Below, piece by piece: positions 545-14,002 of a DNA stretch of 19,728 nt (position 1 is its first letter; the number at the start of each line of letters is the position of its first letter). The notes under the pieces are model-generated. The model ran no database searches and was not told where the DNA came from. It worked only from the letters and a program-made list of their open reading frames with translations. Origin of the DNA: Escherichia coli (GTDB taxonomy: Bacteria > Pseudomonadota > Gammaproteobacteria > Enterobacterales > Enterobacteriaceae); the NCBI RefSeq assembly GCF_003334255.1, contig NZ_QOWU01000070.1; one strand, given 5' to 3'. The position numbers and the translations under genes were made by a program.

Positions 545-3256
545 CTACATTCCAGGTGATGGTGGCGTCCACTCATTATCCTGAACTGGAGTATAAGATG
601 TGTCATTCCCCCCGGATATGCTTTTCTGTTGCCTGATATATTCGTGGTAGTACTGTTCACTACGCTGACGATGTAAATCCACATCCGGGCGGCTGATTAC
701 AAAGTGTCCATTTCCGGTTATTCCAGCTGCATTATGCCAGGCCACCATTTCCGCAAATACATCATTAAACTGTTGATATGAGCCTTCCGGTTCAAAACCC
801 ATTCCAGGCTCACGATCAAACAATACAGGAGCAATCAGATTCAGCTTATCCACCAGTTCATTTCTGTCCTGATGATGGTAGAACACCACACGGTCCCCAT
901 AATCCACACAGACTAACTCGCCATTCCTCCGATCACGAAAACGCACACTGCCATCTTTCTGCAGACGGGCTTCGAGAACGCCAGTGTCTTCATAAAGTGG
1001 AGTTCCTCCCGGTTCACAGATAATCACGCAGCGGTCGGCATTCGTTGTTCGTCGCTTGTCTTTGCGACGATCACGATAATCCCAGCCACGTAACTGTGAT
1101 ACTGCAGCTCTGTCTCCCTGTACCGCCTGTTGCTCCACCCACTGCCGGTAGGACAAAGGATACCACTTACCCTCCGCAATCAGTGACAACCGCTCTTCCT
1201 TCACACTCTCCTTCAGCCTGATCAGCGCCTGCATACGCTGCACTTCCGCAATATGGTAATGCAGCTTACGCAATTGTGGATCCCGGAACTGCACGCGGAT
1301 ATACGCCTTGCGCCGACGGCAGGCAGCATGAATTTCCCGTAACCGTTCTCCGTAACGTAAGTCGGGTTTACGCCAGTGCTCCTTCCATGCAAGATAACGC
1401 GCGCGCAAATCTTCCCGCGCAGCTGCACGGGCTTCACGGCGTTCACGACGCAGTACAGGATCGCGCCGGAAGCCGGGCTCCACTTCATCGCTGGCAGCAA
1501 GTTCCGGATTGTAGCGACATTCAGGCTTCACCCGTTCAAATATATCTGCACCTGCGATCTCAAATGGCCCTGCCTGCGGCTCAGCCCTGGATAATGTCAA
1601 ATCCGGGTGGATACTGCTGGCCTTCACTGGTGTCAGCTCATGATTAAACGCATCCACAATCACAAGACCATGATGCTGTTTCTGCAACATAAGCCCTTTA
1701 CGCGCAAACATCTCATGGCACGCCTGCCAGCTGAAATTCCCGCCCGCGATCATATCTTCAATCAACGACTCACACTGAACAGTCGTGTACCCCCACAGAC
1801 TTTCCTTATCAGAAAACAGTTCGCGCTTTATTGCTCCCTGTGGACCTGTCCCCATCCGCATACGATACCATTCGTAATCACTGACAGCCCGGGTACCGGT
1901 ACTGTGCCCCCGGAATCGTTCTCCGGGGACGACCTGGGTAAAAATATCCTTCGGTACAGGCTGCCATCCGCCTTCCTGATCCTGCATGTAATCCAGCGTC
2001 ATTAACGGCCACACACTGTCTGCACGTACTGGTGTCTGTTGTTTATCAAATCCATCATGCAGTACCAGATGCCCGTGCTGGATCCCCATCCATAATCCAG
2101 CCTTTGCCAGAGTTCTGTGCACATCCAGGCAACTTTCCAGCTCACCATTTCTCGCCATTTCCGGTAAGCGTTCGGCAAAATGACGGCAGGCGTACTGTTT
2201 CAGACTCTCCGTTTCTGCCACTTTTTCCGGCCGGATATCAACGTTTATCGCTTCCGGATCATAACGACCGGGTGTCCCCACCTGACTGAAAATATCTGTC
2301 GGTACAGGCTGATATTCTCCCAGTTTCCGCCCCAGTCTTTCAGCCGTCCATGACGGGCCGAACGAACTGAGCACAACACCTTCCCGCGATCTGTCCCAGC
2401 CATCCTTCACCACCAGTTCTCCCTCCTGCATCGTGATATACAGACCATCACGGGCCAGCCGTTTATGCAAAGACAACCAGTCCTGGGCGGGTTCTTCACG
2501 CAGCCCGGCAATCGACATCTGCGCAATATATTCCCTGAAGGTCTGCTTTTTCCCGCGTCGCCAGGCATTACGGCGCTCACGTACCAGCGCTGTTTTACGC
2601 ACAATACGGTTGCCCGGTGCATGCACAAAACACCCGTTATCCGGTGCAAATCCGTGCTTAAGTTCAAGTTCACGGCATGCACGACTGAGTTTTTCCTTGC
2701 TCCACGGAAGGCAATTGATATAGCCGGTTTCAGGATGAACACGATTCACTGCAACATGTACATGCAGGTTATCGGTGTCTGTATGAACGGCAGCTACATA
2801 CTGATGTTTTGAAAGTTCAAGGGATTTCAGTGTGTGACGTACGCAGTCAAAAAGCTGCTCAGGACGCGGGCTTTCATGCGCAGGCCAGGAAAGAATGTAG
2901 TGAAAAACAGGGTCTGTATCATCTTTGGAAAAATGAGCAAGGTCTGCTGCTTTCTGCATTTCTTCAGCCGCAGATTCAAGAGACAAACAGTTATGAAAGC
3001 AGGTCACACCATAGAAATTCACCCACTGACTGCCGTCTTCCATTACATCAATCAGGGATACAAATTTTTCGTTACGCAGGCGTGTGGCATAGTCAACAAG
3101 CCGTCTGAAGCGGTTACGGTGCGGGACCTCACCTTTCATTTCCGGGTCTGGTTTGAGTTCATCATCCTGCACATCATCCCGCACAGACGTGTACGCAATC
3201 AGGTCTTCAAAGGAAGACCTTCCGTCACGTCTTTTGGGCGGAATGATAGCATTCAT
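545..3256 (-). CDS. nikB: MOBP-family conjugative relaxase (NikB-like), 903 aa
   Basis: Relaxase histidine motif HTDTDNLHVHVAVNRVHPETG (HxDxxxxHxH type). Size and N-terminus (MNAIIPPKRRDGRSSFEDL) fit my memory of IncI1 R64 NikB (~900 aa). Lies directly downstream of a nikA-like gene and oriT. Confidence 0.88.
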   Translation of the reverse strand: MNAIIPPKRRDGRSSFEDLIAYTSVRDDVQDDELKPDPEMKGEVPHRNRFRRLVDYATRLRNEKFVSLIDVMEDGSQWVNFYGVTCFHNCLSLESAAEEMQKAADLAHFSKDDTDPVFHYILSWPAHESPRPEQLFDCVRHTLKSLELSKHQYVAAVHTDTDNLHVHVAVNRVHPETGYINCLPWSKEKLSRACRELELKHGFAPDNGCFVHAPGNRIVRKTALVRERRNAWRRGKKQTFREYIAQMSIAGLREEPAQDWLSLHKRLARDGLYITMQEGELVVKDGWDRSREGVVLSSFGPSWTAERLGRKLGEYQPVPTDIFSQVGTPGRYDPEAINVDIRPEKVAETESLKQYACRHFAERLPEMARNGELESCLDVHRTLAKAGLWMGIQHGHLVLHDGFDKQQTPVRADSVWPLMTLDYMQDQEGGWQPVPKDIFTQVVPGERFRGHSTGTRAVSDYEWYRMRMGTGPQGAIKRELFSDKESLWGYTTVQCESLIEDMIAGGNFSWQACHEMFARKGLMLQKQHHGLVIVDAFNHELTPVKASSIHPDLTLSRAEPQAGPFEIAGADIFERVKPECRYNPELAASDEVEPGFRRDPVLRRERREARAAAREDLRARYLAWKEHWRKPDLRYGERLREIHAACRRRKAYIRVQFRDPQLRKLHYHIAEVQRMQALIRLKESVKEERLSLIAEGKWYPLSYRQWVEQQAVQGDRAAVSQLRGWDYRDRRKDKRRTTNADRCVIICEPGGTPLYEDTGVLEARLQKDGSVRFRDRRNGELVCVDYGDRVVFYHHQDRNELVDKLNLIAPVLFDREPGMGFEPEGSYQQFNDVFAEMVAWHNAAGITGNGHFVISRPDVDLHRQRSEQYYHEYIRQQKSISGGNDTSYTPVQDNEWTPPSPGM

Positions 3257-3267
3257 CAGCGACTGTC

Positions 3268-3600
3268 TCAGCGTCCCATTAAGTCTCTTCGCAGAGTGTT
3301 TGCAAGTTCTGTAATGGCAACGAGGACCTCTGCATACTCTTTATCTCCCGTGCGTTTTCCTTCCACAAACAGATGCTTCTGCAGGTGACCAAGACGCATC
3401 AACTCTTTCAAAAAATCTTCATCAATGCGGGCATTTATCTGTTTTCCCAGCACAGTTTTTCTTATCAGAGTTGAAACTGTCAGTCCGTTTTTTTCTGCCT
3501 TTTCTTTAACAATCTCAGCCTCTTCTGGTGAAAAACGAACAGCAATGAGGACATTCTTTTGCCGTTTCTCACTGCCATTTCGGTTTTTCTTCTCACTCAT
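3268..3600 (-). CDS. nikA: Relaxosome accessory protein NikA (ribbon-helix-helix oriT-binding), 110 aa
   Basis: 110-aa product starting MSEKKNRNGSEKRQ with SD AAGGAG 6 nt upstream of the ATG at 3598-3600; the longer 139-aa ORF in the track would overlap the oriT repeat. Small basic protein immediately upstream of the relaxase, the R64 nikA-nikB arrangement. Confidence 0.85.
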   Translation of the reverse strand: MSEKKNRNGSEKRQKNVLIAVRFSPEEAEIVKEKAEKNGLTVSTLIRKTVLGKQINARIDEDFLKELMRLGHLQKHLFVEGKRTGDKEYAEVLVAITELANTLRRDLMGR

Positions 3601-3641
3601 GGTCTGCTCCTTACCAGGGTGTCGGGGCAAAGCCCTGACCA

Positions 3642-3700
3642 GGTGGTAATCGTATAGCCGTGCGTGCGCGGTTATACGATTACACATCCTGTCCCGTTTT
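3642..3700 (+). other. oriT: oriT: inverted repeat (arms 3646-3656 / 3673-3683) followed by nick-core-like ACATCCTG TCCCG
   Basis: 11-bp inverted repeat GTAATCGTATA / TATACGATTAC, then 8 bp later ATCCTG (3686-3691) resembling the MOBP nic core (RP4 ATCCTG|C); sits between nikA and the leading region. Nick position 3691|3692 is inferred by analogy only. Confidence 0.6.
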
Positions 3701-5152: not shown

Positions 5153-5463
5153 GGAGGAGCGAAGCTCCTTCTGCCGTCCGGGTCTTCGGGGATTTCCCCG
5201 CAGTGGACCTTTCCGACGGGGGACGCTCACCACGTCACGGGGCAGTTGTCCGGGGGCAGACGCAAAAGTTTTTGACGCCTGCGGCAAAAAGTTTTGTGGC
5301 TGGTACATCTCTCCCCTGGACGACTGAAACGGGATGTGGTCGTGTATGTACCCCCGGAAAGTCCGTCTGCGGAGAACAGGCCGCAGTGCGGCGGCAGACA
5401 GGCAGAGACAGCTGCGCCATCAGGCGCAGTGGCATTACACACCGTCAGGTGTGCAGGGAGCGC
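5153..5463 (+). promoter_or_regulatory. Structured GC-rich element resembling a single-stranded-DNA promoter (Frpo/ssi type), copy 1
   Basis: No credible coding despite many overlapping ORFs; dense hairpins (GGAGC gaa GCTCC, CGGGGAttTCCCCG, CTGCGCC atca GGCGCAG, CACACC gtca GGTGTG); contains TTGACG inside a hairpin; paralogous to 8317-8626. Confidence 0.6.
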
Positions 5464-5578
5464 CGCATCCGGCGCGACTGAAGAAAAACGACGGCACAAC
5501 AATGGCATGTGGTGGTCACTGGCACACCACTCCCGCACAGGTGAAAACAGAGAAAACCGCACGACATCTGCAATTAAA

Positions 5579-5667
5579 AAAAGTGAAATTTCTTCACTTT
5601 TTCACACTTATTTTTCGCGCTGATTTGGTGATTATGGTGATAAAATAAAGTGAAGTTTTTTCACTTT
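5579..5667 (+). promoter_or_regulatory. Twin operator-like palindromes and promoter upstream of the HTH gene
   Basis: Two copies of AAAGTGAA-N5/6-TTCACTTT (5579-5600 and 5647-5667) flanking an AT-rich -10-like stretch, ending 15 bp before the ATG at 5682. Confidence 0.55.
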
Positions 5668-5681
5668 TTCAAAGGTGTTTT

Positions 5682-5933
5682 ATGACCGGCTGGGAACTGC
5701 GAATCTGGCGAAAAAGCATGCTCTGGTCACGCGAAAAAGCGGCCAGAGAATTTGGCGTGACGCAGAGAACATGGCACGCCTGGGAAAATGCGGAACAGGT
5801 GGATGTCACCGTCTGGAGGACCACCCAGGCACTTTCAGTCCGTGACCTGCTGCCTCACATGCAGGGGATGCGTAAGGCAGATATCATCAGGCGACTGGAA
5901 AATGAACTGGGGGAAACGGCAGAGGATGTGTGA
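5682..5933 (+). CDS. Small helix-turn-helix (XRE-like) DNA-binding protein, 83 aa
   Basis: ATG with AAAGGTG SD; N-terminal segment ELRIWRKSMLWSREKAAREFGVTQRTWHAWEN fits an XRE-type HTH; preceded by the twin palindromes. Confidence 0.65.
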   Translation: MTGWELRIWRKSMLWSREKAAREFGVTQRTWHAWENAEQVDVTVWRTTQALSVRDLLPHMQGMRKADIIRRLENELGETAEDV

Positions 5934-7975: not shown

Positions 7976-8110
7976 TCACATGGCGTAGCCTCTGAGGTGG
8001 TCCAGCCACCAACAGAACTCGTGCCATTCGTCGCCTTTCATTGGCGGAATGCGTGTGGGTTGTCCTTTGACAACCGCATCAGCAAGGGTTACGATTTGTC
8101 TGAGTGACAT
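7976..8110 (-). CDS. Hypothetical small protein, 44 aa (MSLRQIVTLADAVVKGQPTRIPPMKGDEWHEFCWWLDHLRGYAM)
   Basis: ATG at 8108-8110 preceded by AAGGAT; the longer 75-aa ORF in the track would read through the upstream GC hairpin motif. First gene downstream of structured element copy 2. Confidence 0.5.
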   Translation of the reverse strand: MSLRQIVTLADAVVKGQPTRIPPMKGDEWHEFCWWLDHLRGYAM

Positions 8111-8316
8111 AATCAATATCCTTACAAAGGTTGTTGATATCCGTGCAAAGGGGTGTTCCCGCCCCCCTGGCACACCCACTAACCTCCTTTTCCTTCCCGG
8201 CATTCCCTCACGCTGTGCGTGATTTACATCGTTCTCACCTCCTTCACTGGGTTGTTTCTGTTCGCTAAAAAATGGTCAGGTTGTTAAAGAGCGGCACGGT
8301 ATGTTCAGGCATCTTC

Positions 8317-8626
8317 ACAGGAGCGAAGCTCCTTCTGCCGTCCACTTCTTCGGGGTTTCTCCCGCTGTGGACCTTTCCGATGGGGGCCCGTTTACCGCCT
8401 CACGGGACAGCTGTCCGGGGGCGGACGCAAAATTTTTAGCCGGGTTCATGGCTAAAAATTTTGTGGCCGGTGCATCTCACCCTGGACAGATGGAACGGGA
8501 GGGGGTTACGTCTGCCCCCCGGAAAGTCCACAGCGGGAAACAGGCCGCAGGGGTGGCGGCAGGAGGGAGGACTGCTGCGCCATCAGGCGCAGTTTCCTCA
8601 CACACCGTCAGGTGTGCAGGGAGCGC
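8317..8626 (+). promoter_or_regulatory. Structured GC-rich element resembling a single-stranded-DNA promoter (Frpo/ssi type), copy 2
   Basis: Shares blocks with copy 1 (GGAGCGAAGCTCCTTCTGCCGTCC, GTGGACCTTTCCGA, GTCCGGGGGC-GACGCAAAA, CCCGGAAAGTCC, CTGCGCCATCAGGCGCAGT, ACACACCGTCAGGTGTGCAGGGAGCGC). Contains a perfect 14-bp hairpin CAAAATTTTTAGCC / GGCTAAAAATTTTG (8428-8463). Confidence 0.6.
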
Positions 8627-9015
8627 AGGTCACGGCGCGACAGGGGCGGCGCGACCGGAACGGTCGCTGCAAGCCGGGTTTTCACGCATCGGACCGTAGC
8701 GGCAGCCCGAAACCGCGCCAGCGGGTTCGGCGGAGACTGGCGGGTGCGCCAGCAGCTGCCCGTCGGAGTCGGGCCTGACGACCGGATGCCGCCAGGCAGC
8801 CGGGAGCCGAAGTGGGCGCAATAAAAGACAGCCAGAAACGGTGACAGTGTCACGGAATATCACTCCTGTTCCCTGCATACAGCCATACACTACCTTCTGA
8901 CCGGAAAGCCGGGCCGGCAGCGCCGCAGGCGCTGCACCCCGCGTTTCCGGCAGGCGTCAGCCTGCCTGGGGTTTTCGCGCGGGCTGACAGGCGGCCTCCA
9001 CCGCCTGCCCCTGTA

Positions 9016-9207
9016 TCACCTGTTTCTGCTGCCCTGAAGGATGTAGTGACCGCCCAGGAAAACCGCCTGCTGATTCGCCACAAAATCGCAGATTTCATCA
9101 ACAATCTGCGCGGTGGTGAGCGGTTTCTGCCCCATTTCACGACGCCGCGCATTAATCACGGCCCTGTAATTACGCAGAATTTCGCGGGTTTCTGTGCTGA
9201 TATTCAT
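9016..9207 (-). CDS. Hypothetical small protein, 63 aa, translationally coupled to the upstream gene
   Basis: ATG overlaps the stop of the 9204-9626 gene (ATGA). Confidence 0.6.
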   Translation of the reverse strand: MNISTETREILRNYRAVINARRREMGQKPLTTAQIVDEICDFVANQQAVFLGGHYILQGSRNR

Positions 9208-9626
9208 GACATCGTCTCCCCGTCCAGCGCCTGTAACACAACGTCCATTGCTTCGCGTTCCTCCCTGACGAATGCGTCACCGTCGCCCCCGTTCTCACTC
9301 CCGACGGCATACAGGCGCTTCATTTCACTGCCTGCCAGCGCCATCACTTTTTCCAGCATCACCGCCGGGACTGTCACATGACGGCTGGCGCGCTTTTCTT
9401 CCATCAGTTCACGAACAACGTCGTGAACAACGCTGACATCCGCACCATGCTCAAAGGCATCGTCCAGTCGCTGCATGACGGTTTCCAGCTCATCGTCTGA
9501 CAGGTTCCAGTCCTGGGCTATGTGACGCACATCCCCACGGGTCAGCACCACGGCAAAAACGCATTCACTGTCCGGCACGTCTGTATCCAGTACATCGCGG
9601 ATGATTTCTTTAACAGTACAGTACAT
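9204..9626 (-). CDS. Acidic hypothetical protein, 140 aa (possibly DUF1380-like, a family often next to ArdB/KlcA genes)
   Basis: ATG with SD AAGGAGACG; acidic composition; family name from memory only. Confidence 0.65.
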   Translation of the reverse strand: MYCTVKEIIRDVLDTDVPDSECVFAVVLTRGDVRHIAQDWNLSDDELETVMQRLDDAFEHGADVSVVHDVVRELMEEKRASRHVTVPAVMLEKVMALAGSEMKRLYAVGSENGGDGDAFVREEREAMDVVLQALDGETMS

Positions 9627-9672: not shown

Positions 9673-10098
9673 TCAGTCAAGTGCAGCGTAAATCGCGTTG
9701 CATTCGGGGTGAAATTCGATGTGGCTCCACAACTGCGCATCGCGCATCCTGTACAGGTGTGTCAACCCTGCATCCCCGCTGTCGTGGTACAGCCACAACT
9801 GGCGGTTAATCACAAGGGAAGTCAAAATGATGCCTGCGGCATCAGCACTCACGGTACGGTCAAACCAGTTTTCACCGTTGACCAGATGAAAACGGTCGCC
9901 ATCCGGCATCATGTAACCGCCACCGTCCGGCAGGCGGATGAAGTGCCAGAATCCGCCTTCATATTCCGGCATCATTTTTTTCGCCAGCGCGTATACAGAC
10001 GCTTCGGCATACAGAAAATCCAGGCCAAACAGGTAAGGCAGAAAAGACAGACGGTCGCACTCTTCAACGTTCAGAGTGACAGGTTTCGCATACTGCAT
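9673..10098 (-). CDS. ArdB/KlcA-family antirestriction-like protein, 141 aa
   Basis: Start MQYAKPVTL with SD GGAGG 6 nt upstream (the track ORF begins earlier at 10179). Motifs FLPYLFG, EGGFWHFIRLPDGGGYMMPDGD and SADAAGIILT match my recollection of the KlcA/ArdB/YfjX family. Confidence 0.7.
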   Translation of the reverse strand: MQYAKPVTLNVEECDRLSFLPYLFGLDFLYAEASVYALAKKMMPEYEGGFWHFIRLPDGGGYMMPDGDRFHLVNGENWFDRTVSADAAGIILTSLVINRQLWLYHDSGDAGLTHLYRMRDAQLWSHIEFHPECNAIYAALD

Positions 10099-10140
10099 GG
10101 GATTTCCTCCGTTGTTCACATATTCCGCGACACCGGGCGG

Positions 10141-10364
10141 TGCCGTGCCTCCATCTTTGCCGGGCCTGCAGGGTTGCAAGGGCGCAAGGGAAGCCGCAGC
10201 CTGACGCGCACGGCTGACGGGAGTTGGAGGGTGAGACCGCGAAATCTGAGCGGGTGAACGACCGGAAAATCACGGCAGACGGGAAGGAGGGACCGGGTGA
10301 CCGCAGCGGTTCACCTTACCTTGCAACCCGCCCGCAGAAGCCCGGCTACGATGGAGGCACGGCA
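10141..10364 (+). promoter_or_regulatory. Long imperfect hairpin (about 225 bp) upstream of the klcA-like operon; possible third ssDNA promoter/ssi element
   Basis: Outer arms TGCCGTGCCTCCATC (10141-10155) and GATGGAGGCACGGCA (10350-10364) are exact reverse complements; inner arms GCCGGGC...GGTTGCAAGG / CCTTGCAACC...GCCCGGC also pair; nested palindromes CGGGTGAACGACCGG and GGTGACCGCAGCGGTTCACC. Confidence 0.5.
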
Positions 10365-10511
10365 CAGCCCGCACACGACGCTGAGGCCACATAACTGAAA
10401 ACCCACAAGGCCATGCCCCGCATGGCCGGGTAAAGCGGAGCCTGCGGCGACATCCTTTTGCTCTTTCCGGGGACCGGCTGGAAAAGGCGGAGATTTTCCC
10501 CGCCAGCGTCA

Positions 10512-13129: not shown

Positions 13130-13357
13130 CTATAGCCCCTTAAATACTCAATCTGAGTAAATCACTGTTTCTGGTTGCAAGGTAATACTCAATTTGAGCA
13201 CCATCATAGTTATGAAATCACAAAACACAAGTATTATTTATTACATCACATGACTCACTTCATATTTCATACTTCATAAATGTGAACGCATATTGACACC
13301 TCAGGTTACCGTGTCAAAATATCATCATACTTCACACATCACATTTATGAGGTTGCA
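13130..13357. promoter_or_regulatory. AT-rich divergent promoter / centromere-like repeat region between stbA and parA
   Basis: Direct repeats AATACTCAATCTGAGTA (13143-13159) and AATACTCAATTTGAGCA (13183-13199), plus repeated ACTTCATA / ACATCACAT motifs; lies between divergently transcribed partition operons. Confidence 0.55.
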
Positions 13358-14002
13358 ATGATTACTGTAGTTGGTGGGAACAAAGGTGGTTCAGGGAAAA
13401 CTACCATTGCATCAAACCTGGCTATTGCTCTCGCAAATAAAGGAAGGGAAGTCTGCCTGTTAAACGGAGATCTACAACGAACAGCCGCAAAACATCATGC
13501 GGAACGAGAAGCTGCAGGACTGTTACCAGCAATAACCCTTGTTGAGAAATTTGATAATCTGACACAAACACTACAGGCTCTGAATGAAAAGTTCGATGAT
13601 GTAATAGTGGATGTCGCAGGAAGAAACTCAAAGGAATTCATAACGAGTGGAGTTGTCGCACATCAAATAATTGCGCCACTACAGTGTTCTCAACCAGATC
13701 TGGATACTCTTACAGAACTAGAACAACAGATAGACGCAATGCGTAACCTTAACCCGGAACTTAAGGTTTATTGTTTACAAAGTATGGCAACAACCAATCC
13801 GGTTTTGAGGGGAAATGAGAGAAAAGAATTCCTTGAATATCTTGAAGAATTCCCAACAATTCAAGTCCTGGATTCAGTTATTTGTTTCAGAAAAGTCTAT
13901 CGCGATTGCATGAGCAACGGCACCGGTGTAGTAGAAACGAACAATACAGCAGCCAAAGCAGAAATTGAACATTTAATGAATGAGGTATTTGGCCCATGGT
14001 GA
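13358..14002 (+). CDS. ParA-family (small, ParF-like) partition ATPase, 214 aa
   Basis: Deviant Walker A VVGGNKGGSGKTT near the N-terminus; SD GAGG upstream of the ATG. Confidence 0.85.
   Translation: MITVVGGNKGGSGKTTIASNLAIALANKGREVCLLNGDLQRTAAKHHAEREAAGLLPAITLVEKFDNLTQTLQALNEKFDDVIVDVAGRNSKEFITSGVVAHQIIAPLQCSQPDLDTLTELEQQIDAMRNLNPELKVYCLQSMATTNPVLRGNERKEFLEYLEEFPTIQVLDSVICFRKVYRDCMSNGTGVVETNNTAAKAEIEHLMNEVFGPW

Follow-up and report, generated by a model that had tools for sequence, protein, structure and literature searches.

A conserved multi-helix element accompanies class-1 single-stranded DNA promoters of leading regions on Enterobacterales plasmids

The stretch of DNA analysed here (the window) comprises 19,728 nucleotides (nt) of Escherichia coli sequence (contig NZ_QOWU01000070.1 of assembly GCF_003334255.1), and its subject is a GC-rich tail at positions 8627–9015, immediately to the right of the second of two copies of a single-stranded DNA promoter. 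E. coli plasmids of the IncK2/Z type (I-complex) are 100% identical to positions 8200–9250 of the window, and the tail lies in the leading region of such a conjugative plasmid, where it forms a noncoding spacer separating two operons. According to the annotation of plasmids pDETEC45 and pECOED and to the list of open reading frames (ORFs), the relaxase gene nikB (545–3256, − strand) and nikA (3268–3687, − strand) are followed by oriT and then by the leading-region genes, on the − strand throughout. Leading genes are transcribed from the still single-stranded transferred strand (T strand) by means of hairpin promoters designated Frpo, ssi or ssp (PMC9849209; PMC11541004; PMC12672017). Since the leading genes are on the − strand and the T strand is their template, the + strand of the window is the transferred strand. 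Read 5′ to 3′, this strand carries the class-1 promoter hairpin (8319–8641), a multi-helix element (8624–8814), a variable spacer (8815–8920) and a 3′ flank (8921–9015). The right boundary of the tail is a gene for a yfhA-like protein of 63 amino acids (63-aa gene; 9016–9207, − strand), the last gene of an operon that also includes a KlcA/ArdB-type antirestriction gene (9673–10179, − strand) and a DUF1380 gene (9204–9626, − strand). All related records have the 63-aa gene annotated next to the DUF1380 gene, on its downstream side and overlapping or abutting it, and tblastn found its product encoded in 5000 or more plasmids with an identity of at least 95%. The arrangement of 63-aa gene, tail and class-1 hairpin precedes ssb in the F and IncI1 plasmids as well. 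The F hairpin upstream of ssb is Frpo2 (PMC9849209), which occupies the same position as copy 2 of the window.

Both promoter copies are class-1 units of the Frpo/ssi type on the + strand. Copy 2 (8319–8641) consists of a long imperfect hairpin, with inverted-repeat arms at 8329–8375 and 8523–8569, and two small 3′ hairpins; with the transferred + strand as template, it directs transcription to the left (− strand), and its hairpin dominates the fold of the single-stranded DNA (z = −16). It is 97% identical to ssi2 and 84% identical to ssi3 of IncI1. Copy 1 (5155–5478) is of the ssi1 type and represents a short form without the extension that follows copy 2. The two copies make up a 328-nt repeat with 80% identity, and their homology ends at 5478/8641. 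Homology to the 328-nt Frpo/ssi unit therefore covers 8319–8641, and within the tail only 8627–8641 belongs to it. The tail is not a further promoter copy, because 8642–9015 folds into several short helices and a junction and has no promoter-like site. The initial annotation pointed to the GC-rich composition of the tail and to its contrast with the surroundings of copy 1, and both descriptions were borne out. The GC content of 8627–9015 is 0.686 compared to 0.506 for the window, and the GC-richest 389-nt stretch of the window starts at 8621. Copy 1 is followed after about 95 nt by an AT-rich repeated motif (5573–5681), whereas the GC-rich sequence past copy 2 continues up to the stop codon of the 63-aa gene at 9016.

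The extension of copy 2 is a conserved structured element of about 190 nt (8624–8814, + strand), here referred to as type 1. It scores 175 bits with a covariance model built from divergent copies and is the sole match to this model in the window. A closing helix, P1, delimits a domain that holds P2, P3 with three further helices inside it, and P7. P2 (8646–8674) is a core hairpin of the form GCGGCGCGACCG-GAA-CGGTCGCTGCAAGC; it is the most widely shared piece of the element and is also found in the extension of the F type (type 2). P3 is a long-range helix that pairs 8689–8696 with 8770–8778 and thus spans 8689–8778, enclosing P4 (8699–8700/8705–8706), P5 (8707–8716/8721–8730) and P6 (8735–8737/8762–8764). 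P7 (8782–8803) is a terminal hairpin, CCGGATGCC-GCCA-GGCAGCCGG, beyond which the element terminates in the invariant motif GGAGCCGAAG. This motif is one of four invariant unpaired stretches, the others being GTTCGGCGGAG, GCGGAGT and GACGAC.

The structure is supported by strong covariation. Divergent copies with 70–88% identity, from plasmids of Klebsiella, Citrobacter, Enterobacter and Mixta, were collected by a pattern scan of representative genomes and by BLAST in PLSDB; the scan returned mostly chance matches in GC-rich genomes, along with copies from Citrobacter and Klebsiella that proved useful. For 12 copies aligned simply by MAFFT, RNAalifold predicted the closing helix, the core hairpin, the long-range helix enclosing three small helices and the terminal hairpin, with 14 base pairs changed on both sides. 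The covariance model built from these copies was used to find further full-length copies, and 30 of them were recovered in 20 loci on plasmids of E. coli, Klebsiella, Citrobacter, Enterobacter and Mixta. Among the 29 distinct sequences, standard pairs occupy 98.9% of cells compared to 88.4% in shuffles, both-sided changes occur at 21 of 43 pairs, and none of 500 shuffles reached the observed value on any of five measures. When the partners were slid by 1–3 columns, pairing dropped to 21–43%. Across the model-based alignments overall, pairing amounted to 98.7–98.9%, with 16–21 pairs changed on both sides.

The same pattern is seen in individual helices. The stem of P2 occurs in four compensated variants (GCGACCG/CGGTCGC, GCATCCT/AGGATGC, GCAGCCG/CGGCTGC and GCTGCCG/CGGCAGC), which involve alignment pairs 26–48, 28–45 and 31–42. 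P3 is paired in 100% of cells in the 29 distinct sequences, with both-sided changes at 5 of 7 pairs, and P7 has double-sided changes at 7 of 8 pairs, for example CTGGACAGC/GCTGGCCAG in Klebsiella plasmids. The element thus keeps its base pairs through compensatory substitutions, and it is a separate multi-branched fold and not more of the promoter hairpin. A search of the window with the Rfam models, of the kind suggested by the initial annotation, gave no match at gathering thresholds; scores over 8250–9050 stayed below 15 bits, at chance level, and none of the matches in five related loci fell on the element.

The element follows class-1 promoters in plasmids of several lineages. Between I-complex and IncF plasmids, the segment starting at 8618 or 8642 and ending at 8812 is 97% identical, while the adjoining hairpin is only about 70% alike. 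The ssi2/ssi3 repeat of the IncI1 plasmid pEC3I (locus L007) is accordingly 494 nt long and not just 328 nt: window positions 8319–8812 match 13332–13827 of that locus with 88% identity, and they also match 19675–20174. There are two copies of the element in IncI1 (at ssi2 and ssi3) and three in Klebsiella-type plasmids, and the core is present at Frpo1 and Frpo2 of F with 92–93% identity. In terms of promoters, 30 of the 44 places with a class-1 hairpin in the loci analysed have the full element and 8 of 44 have the second subtype, of the F type, from which we conclude that the usual state of a class-1 promoter is a hairpin together with a structured extension. A clear lack of the element was found only at ssi1 of the I-complex, where copy 1 of the window has no covariance-model match beside it and the orthologous ssi1 of IncI1 is likewise without an extension; the other places with no match are cut by the end of the locus or were not examined further. 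Type 2, at Frpo1 and Frpo2 of F, shares with type 1 the core hairpin with its four compensated stem variants, the GGCGGAGAC motif and a long-range GCGTC/GACGC helix.

Position and orientation are conserved along with the fold. Every testable copy lies 0–61 nt 3′ of a hairpin domain that spans 228–357 nt, and all 30 copies with their hairpins are oriented so that the folded strand is the template (transferred) strand of the leading genes, upstream of co-oriented leading genes. These comparisons identify the element of about 190 nt as a conserved companion of class-1 single-stranded DNA promoters across Enterobacterales plasmids, in two related subtypes. Of 5426 complete E. coli genomes, 3853 have a BLAST match to the element and 2980 have one that covers 80% or more of it; nearly all the matches are on plasmids. 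The sequence itself is therefore commonplace in databases, and the greater length of the repeat was already noted in 2013 (PMC3817090). The conserved fold, its two subtypes and the near-universal pairing with class-1 hairpins have apparently not been described in the literature that we searched.

In two K. pneumoniae IncFIA plasmids (L009, 20180–22521, and L004), a group II intron of 2342 nt (ltrA; Rfam group-II-D1D4-7 and Intron_gpII) is inserted 6 nt after the end motif of the element, at the junction GGAGCCGAAGGTGCGC / GTGCGAC... The insertion site is equivalent to about 8812–8820 of the window, and the intron has the sense of the transferred strand, against the direction of the leading genes. 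A homing target of this group II intron may be the folded single-stranded element or the incoming strand. The enterobacterial element was also found with 93–99% identity in a Streptomyces morookaense assembly (L012, L013) and in metagenome-assembled genomes from the gut labelled Oscillibacter, Erysipelotrichaceae and Collinsella (L016, L022, L024); these public assemblies probably contain plasmid contigs through contamination or mis-binning.

The tail could alternatively be a decayed or real small protein gene, as the initial annotation considered in part, or a functionless repeat that hitch-hikes on recombination between ssi copies. Many records carry a PGAP "hypothetical protein" over the tail, an ORF of 81 codons (8608–8853, − strand) has a GTG start 8 nt after AGGAG, and deletions mediated by ssi repeats are on record (PMC3817090). 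However, the annotated ORFs differ in strand and frame among plasmids: in pDETEC45 the PGAP call uses the − strand, in an IncF plasmid the + strand and in F the strand that corresponds to +. Distances between core motif and end motif are 165, 166, 167, 169, 172, 173 and 176 nt, which are not steps of 3, and the start of the 81-codon ORF falls within the nonconserved spacer. The ORFs of the tail overlap on both strands and, in line with their spurious look in the initial annotation, lack a convincing family match: none has a match in NCBIfam, and the sole match in PHROGs, to an ORF of 86 codons, is marginal (E = 0.037). A clear protein-coding homolog spanning the tail was looked for in NCBIfam, in PHROGs and by comparison of ORFs across plasmids, and none was found. 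Moreover, compensatory changes at 21 pairs are unexpected for neutral or coding DNA. The multi-helix element is not protein-coding, and we regard an origin of the tail as a gene or a hitch-hiking repeat as extremely improbable.

To the right of the element, the tail has a different character. The segment 8815–8920 (GC content 0.55) is a lineage-specific spacer: 8813–8920 cannot be aligned among the I-complex, IncF and Klebsiella versions, other lineages have purine-rich low-complexity sequence in its place, and BLAST found the spacer only in the I-complex loci L001, L002 and L007. The tract beside the element is highly variable in length and consists of (GAA/GAG)n in F (L006, about 8040–8110) and of (CAGTAG)n in one IncF copy. 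The spacer contains the palindrome GTGACAGTGTCAC, which is located at 8841–8853, 3 nt to the left of the position given initially (8844–8856). A role of this palindrome as an operator was rejected, as it is not above chance expectation (the window contains 10 perfect palindromes with two 6-nt arms and a 1-nt spacer compared to 4.8 expected, and 17 each with a spacer of 3 or 4 nt) and lies in the one nonconserved segment of the tail. The idea that the spacer serves as a Rho loading site was also dropped, the − strand RNA being U-rich rather than C-rich by inspection.

The remainder, 8921–9015, flanks the 63-aa gene on its 3′ side and is conserved; GC hairpins are located at 8918–8934, 8949–8966 (followed by GGGGTTTTC on the + strand) and 8988–9007. 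Positions 8945–9015 are 94–99% identical in the IncF loci examined, F included, and 8919–8992 are 80% identical to the flank after ardA in IncI1. Of the extended ssi element proposed in the initial annotation, the segment 8627–8812 holds up, since it is repeated with the ssi unit and abuts class-1 hairpins in every lineage examined, whereas 8815–9015, to judge from sequence comparison, is not ssi and is composed of the variable spacer and the conserved flank of the upstream gene.

The conservation of base pairs leaves the question of which molecule folds. In the alignment, G·T wobbles on the + strand occupy 17 cells in 6 columns compared to 2 cells in 2 columns for A·C, which would be G·U in − strand RNA. 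Together with the consistent orientation on the T strand and the spacing fixed to the hairpin, this bias favours a fold of the incoming single strand. Single-sequence thermodynamics do not separate the two strands.

The − strand RNA could nevertheless be the structured molecule, in which case the element would be the 3′ end of the transcript of the upstream operon (klcA/ardB, DUF1380 and 63-aa genes here, ardA in IncI1) and could be an unconventional kind of terminator, a site of processing or a stabiliser of the 3′ end that in addition keeps transcription from reading through into the next promoter. Several observations are consistent with such a role: the element is always downstream of co-oriented genes, the short form of the promoter is found where there is no co-oriented operon upstream, folding of the − strand RNA is about as good as that of the + strand DNA, and no canonical terminator separates the 63-aa gene from the element. 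Indeed, a scan of the tail from 9015 to 8642 found no canonical intrinsic terminator on the − strand, the sole − strand site being inside the 63-aa gene (9110–9087). On the other hand, the predominance of G·T over A·C implies C·A mismatches in − strand RNA, there is no hairpin followed by a U run on that strand, and the spacing is tight and fixed with respect to the hairpin downstream, in contrast to a variable distance from the stop codon upstream. We therefore consider a role as a − strand transcript end unlikely.

The wobble bias would equally suit a small RNA of the + strand, made from the double-stranded plasmid. The promoter elements in the right arm of the hairpin point rightwards in the duplex, and the RNA would end near the hairpin and T run at 8949–8975. 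A + strand hairpin with a T run is indeed present 135–170 nt downstream in E. coli-type lineages, and a + strand antisense RNA (Rfam AS-pc01) exists elsewhere in IncF leading regions. However, within the hairpin no sigma-70-like promoter was detected on the + strand, published work describes Frpo promoters as inactive in double-stranded form (PMC9849209), and the element is without an Rfam family. The hairpin with its T run is the sole terminator-like structure in the tail; it is confined to E. coli-type lineages and absent from most Klebsiella, Enterobacter and Citrobacter copies, and a + strand terminator as a general feature was dropped as a candidate for this reason. We give very little credence to a + strand small RNA. 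The window has no Rfam match to AS-pc01, and a match to AS-pc02 at 8914–8969 scored 10.8 bits, which is at chance level; AS-pc02 was below threshold in every IncF locus checked.

If the single strand itself folds, the element could be a priming signal for synthesis of the complementary strand on the T strand, either an ssi of the primase or PriA type or a counterpart of the single-strand origins of rolling-circle plasmids, next to a promoter that also makes RNA primers. The orientation-specific, multi-hairpin single-stranded DNA of 150–190 nt on the T strand, with its invariant unpaired motifs, fits this description. Frpo and ssi elements were discovered through their priming activity, and transcripts from Frpo serve as primers for conversion in vivo (PMC7690428; bioRxiv 10.64898/2026.01.09.698686), and since conversion persists with rifampicin, other primers exist (bioRxiv 10.64898/2026.01.09.698686). 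Against this, inspection of the alignment showed no conserved CTG start of the G4 type, CGCTGCAAG of the E. coli types being replaced by CGCAGCAAG in the Klebsiella types, and a primer made in the element would be extended straight into the promoter hairpin, thereby switching it off. Priming as the function of the element is in our judgement rather improbable, a shade more so than a transcript end on the − strand. The TAGCG motif may resemble CS-6 of ssoA.

Taken as a whole, the observations are probably best explained by a conserved folded companion of the class-1 promoter on the transferred strand. A mechanism in cis, by which folding of the element in the incoming single strand would affect the adjoining promoter, is put forward tentatively. 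Located at the hairpin base, a compact domain rich in GC could keep the hairpin closed. It could at the same time shield the hairpin from arrivals on the 3′ side of the template, which might be RNA polymerase reading through from an upstream operon with its own single-stranded DNA promoter, the polymerase that synthesises the complementary DNA strand, or SSB as it spreads. This would prolong the time for which the promoter is single-stranded and active. It is also possible that a host factor recognises the element, as the invariant unpaired motifs suggest.

The arrangement of the locus is consistent with such a shield or clamp. Traffic that moves 3′ to 5′ on the template meets the element just before the hairpin, and read-through would otherwise reach the hairpin, given that there is no canonical − strand terminator. 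The only promoter that lacks a co-oriented upstream operon is the one in the short form, and the hairpin of a class-2 single-stranded DNA promoter has been reported to stall synthesis of the complementary strand and thereby prolong early expression (bioRxiv 10.64898/2026.01.09.698686). These three considerations lead us to favour a cis-acting shield or clamp.

A number of points weigh against this interpretation. The larger alignments were fitted to the covariance model and their sequences fall in a few clades, and folding of single sequences is only modestly better than that of shuffles (z = −2.4 for + strand DNA and −2.1 for − strand RNA). The wobble bias amounts to few independent events, and the argument from the short form with nothing upstream refers to essentially one orthologous locus. 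By definition, Frpo is a unit of 328 nt with activity in vitro (PMC7690428); if the limit of this unit coincides with the end of the 328-nt repeat described here, basal promoter activity does not require the extension. The roadblock to conversion in F maps to the class-2 promoter and not to Frpo2 (bioRxiv 10.64898/2026.01.09.698686). Finally, invariant unpaired motifs would be superfluous in a pure barrier.

The closest known systems are the promoters to which the element is attached, Frpo1 and Frpo2 (ssp1a/b) of F and ssi1–3 of ColIb-P9/pESBL. Copy 2 is a member of this group, and the extension accompanies these promoters on the same transferred strand at a fixed position. The published Frpo/ssi unit is the 328-nt hairpin region with −35 and −10 boxes (PMC7690428), whereas the extension lies outside it, is multi-branched, has no promoter boxes and is missing at ssi1; it is not mentioned in the recent literature on Frpo/ssi/ssp promoters that we examined. 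Venturini et al. (2013, PMC3817090) described R1–R3 of the IncI plasmid pO26-CRL125 as imperfect repeats containing Frpo, with a length of at least 461 nt (a hybrid of 239 and 222 bases) that is close to the 494 nt of the ssi2/ssi3 repeat, and reported the loss of a 9.7-kb ssb-psiB-ardA module by recombination between Frpo repeats. In that work the repeats are carriers of Frpo and substrates for recombination, and the structure, covariation and role of the additional ~170 nt do not appear.

The class-2 roadblock at ssp2 (Fraikin et al., 10.64898/2026.01.09.698686) is similar in that GC-rich folded T-strand DNA would control, by its structure and not by a transcript, how long neighbouring promoters stay single-stranded. 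At ssp2 the promoter hairpin itself is the barrier, whereas the barrier proposed here is a separate domain beside a class-1 hairpin, and no roadblock was reported at Frpo2. No sequence relation of the element to class 2 was found, as the covariance model has no match at the class-2 site of the window (10134–10371). The single-strand origins of rolling-circle plasmids (ssoA and others) and the ssi of the G4 and phiX174 types are likewise orientation-dependent structured single-stranded DNA of about 150–250 nt that works only when single-stranded, and a review has likened Frpo to them functionally (PMC7690428). These signals belong to a different type of replicon, and inspection of the alignments showed no conserved primase start motif in the element.

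Single-stranded DNA promoters of leading regions are actively studied, as they activate genes for anti-restriction, anti-SOS and other establishment functions within minutes after a plasmid has entered and thereby help resistance plasmids spread. These results lead us to speculate that class-1 promoters could be two-part devices, in which the hairpin is joined by a folded single-stranded domain of about 150–190 nt whose invariant unpaired motifs serve for recognition by a host or plasmid factor, and that controls how long or how often the promoter fires, or where synthesis of the complementary strand starts or stalls. This possible organisation, which we hold to be doubtful but worth stating, would apply to most F-like and I-complex plasmids of Enterobacterales, F included. 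If the promoter unit does include a folded domain beyond the 328 nt, an unrecognised functional part may have been left in or taken out of constructs and deletion mutants, and thousands of "hypothetical protein" calls over the element in plasmid annotations are probably spurious. The element would also provide a new handle on the coupling of transcription and strand conversion, for which compensatory mutants of P3 and P7 are obvious from the alignment.

Several further features were noted in the window and in the related plasmids. Between promoter copy 1 and a small helix-turn-helix gene (5682–5933, + strand), the AT-rich segment at 5573–5681 contains two copies of a motif of about 42 nt with AAAGTGAA-N-TTCACTTTTTCA, likely an operator pair for the adjacent helix-turn-helix regulator. 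A 32-nt inverted repeat at 10134–10371, with arms that are 91% complementary and 174 nt apart, spans the start of the KlcA/ArdB gene, and a class-2 single-stranded DNA promoter has been described at the same position upstream of klcA (Wen et al. 2025, PMC12672017). Matches to the Rfam family AS-pc01 ("antisense to pHK01_035") above threshold were found on the + strand in loci L003 (1869–1970), L009 (19369–19470) and L008 (23591–23687), on the strand opposite the leading genes; in two IncF plasmids (L003 and L009) the match overlaps the start of the first gene downstream of the class-1 hairpin.

The module of ssb, a parB-like gene, psiB, psiA and ardA that is located downstream of the IncI1 promoter (L007, 13300–19680) is missing from the window, where homology stops at 8292. 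Its absence resembles the repeat-mediated 9.7-kb loss described for pO111-CRL115. Plasmid pDETEC45 (L001, 5768–8383) carries the IS66-family element ISCro1 between an Rpn-like nuclease gene and the genes to the left of promoter copy 2. The coordinate offsets between pDETEC45 and the window are 801 and about 1906 on the two sides, which indicates that the window is without ISCro1 and hence comes from a close relative that lacks the insertion.

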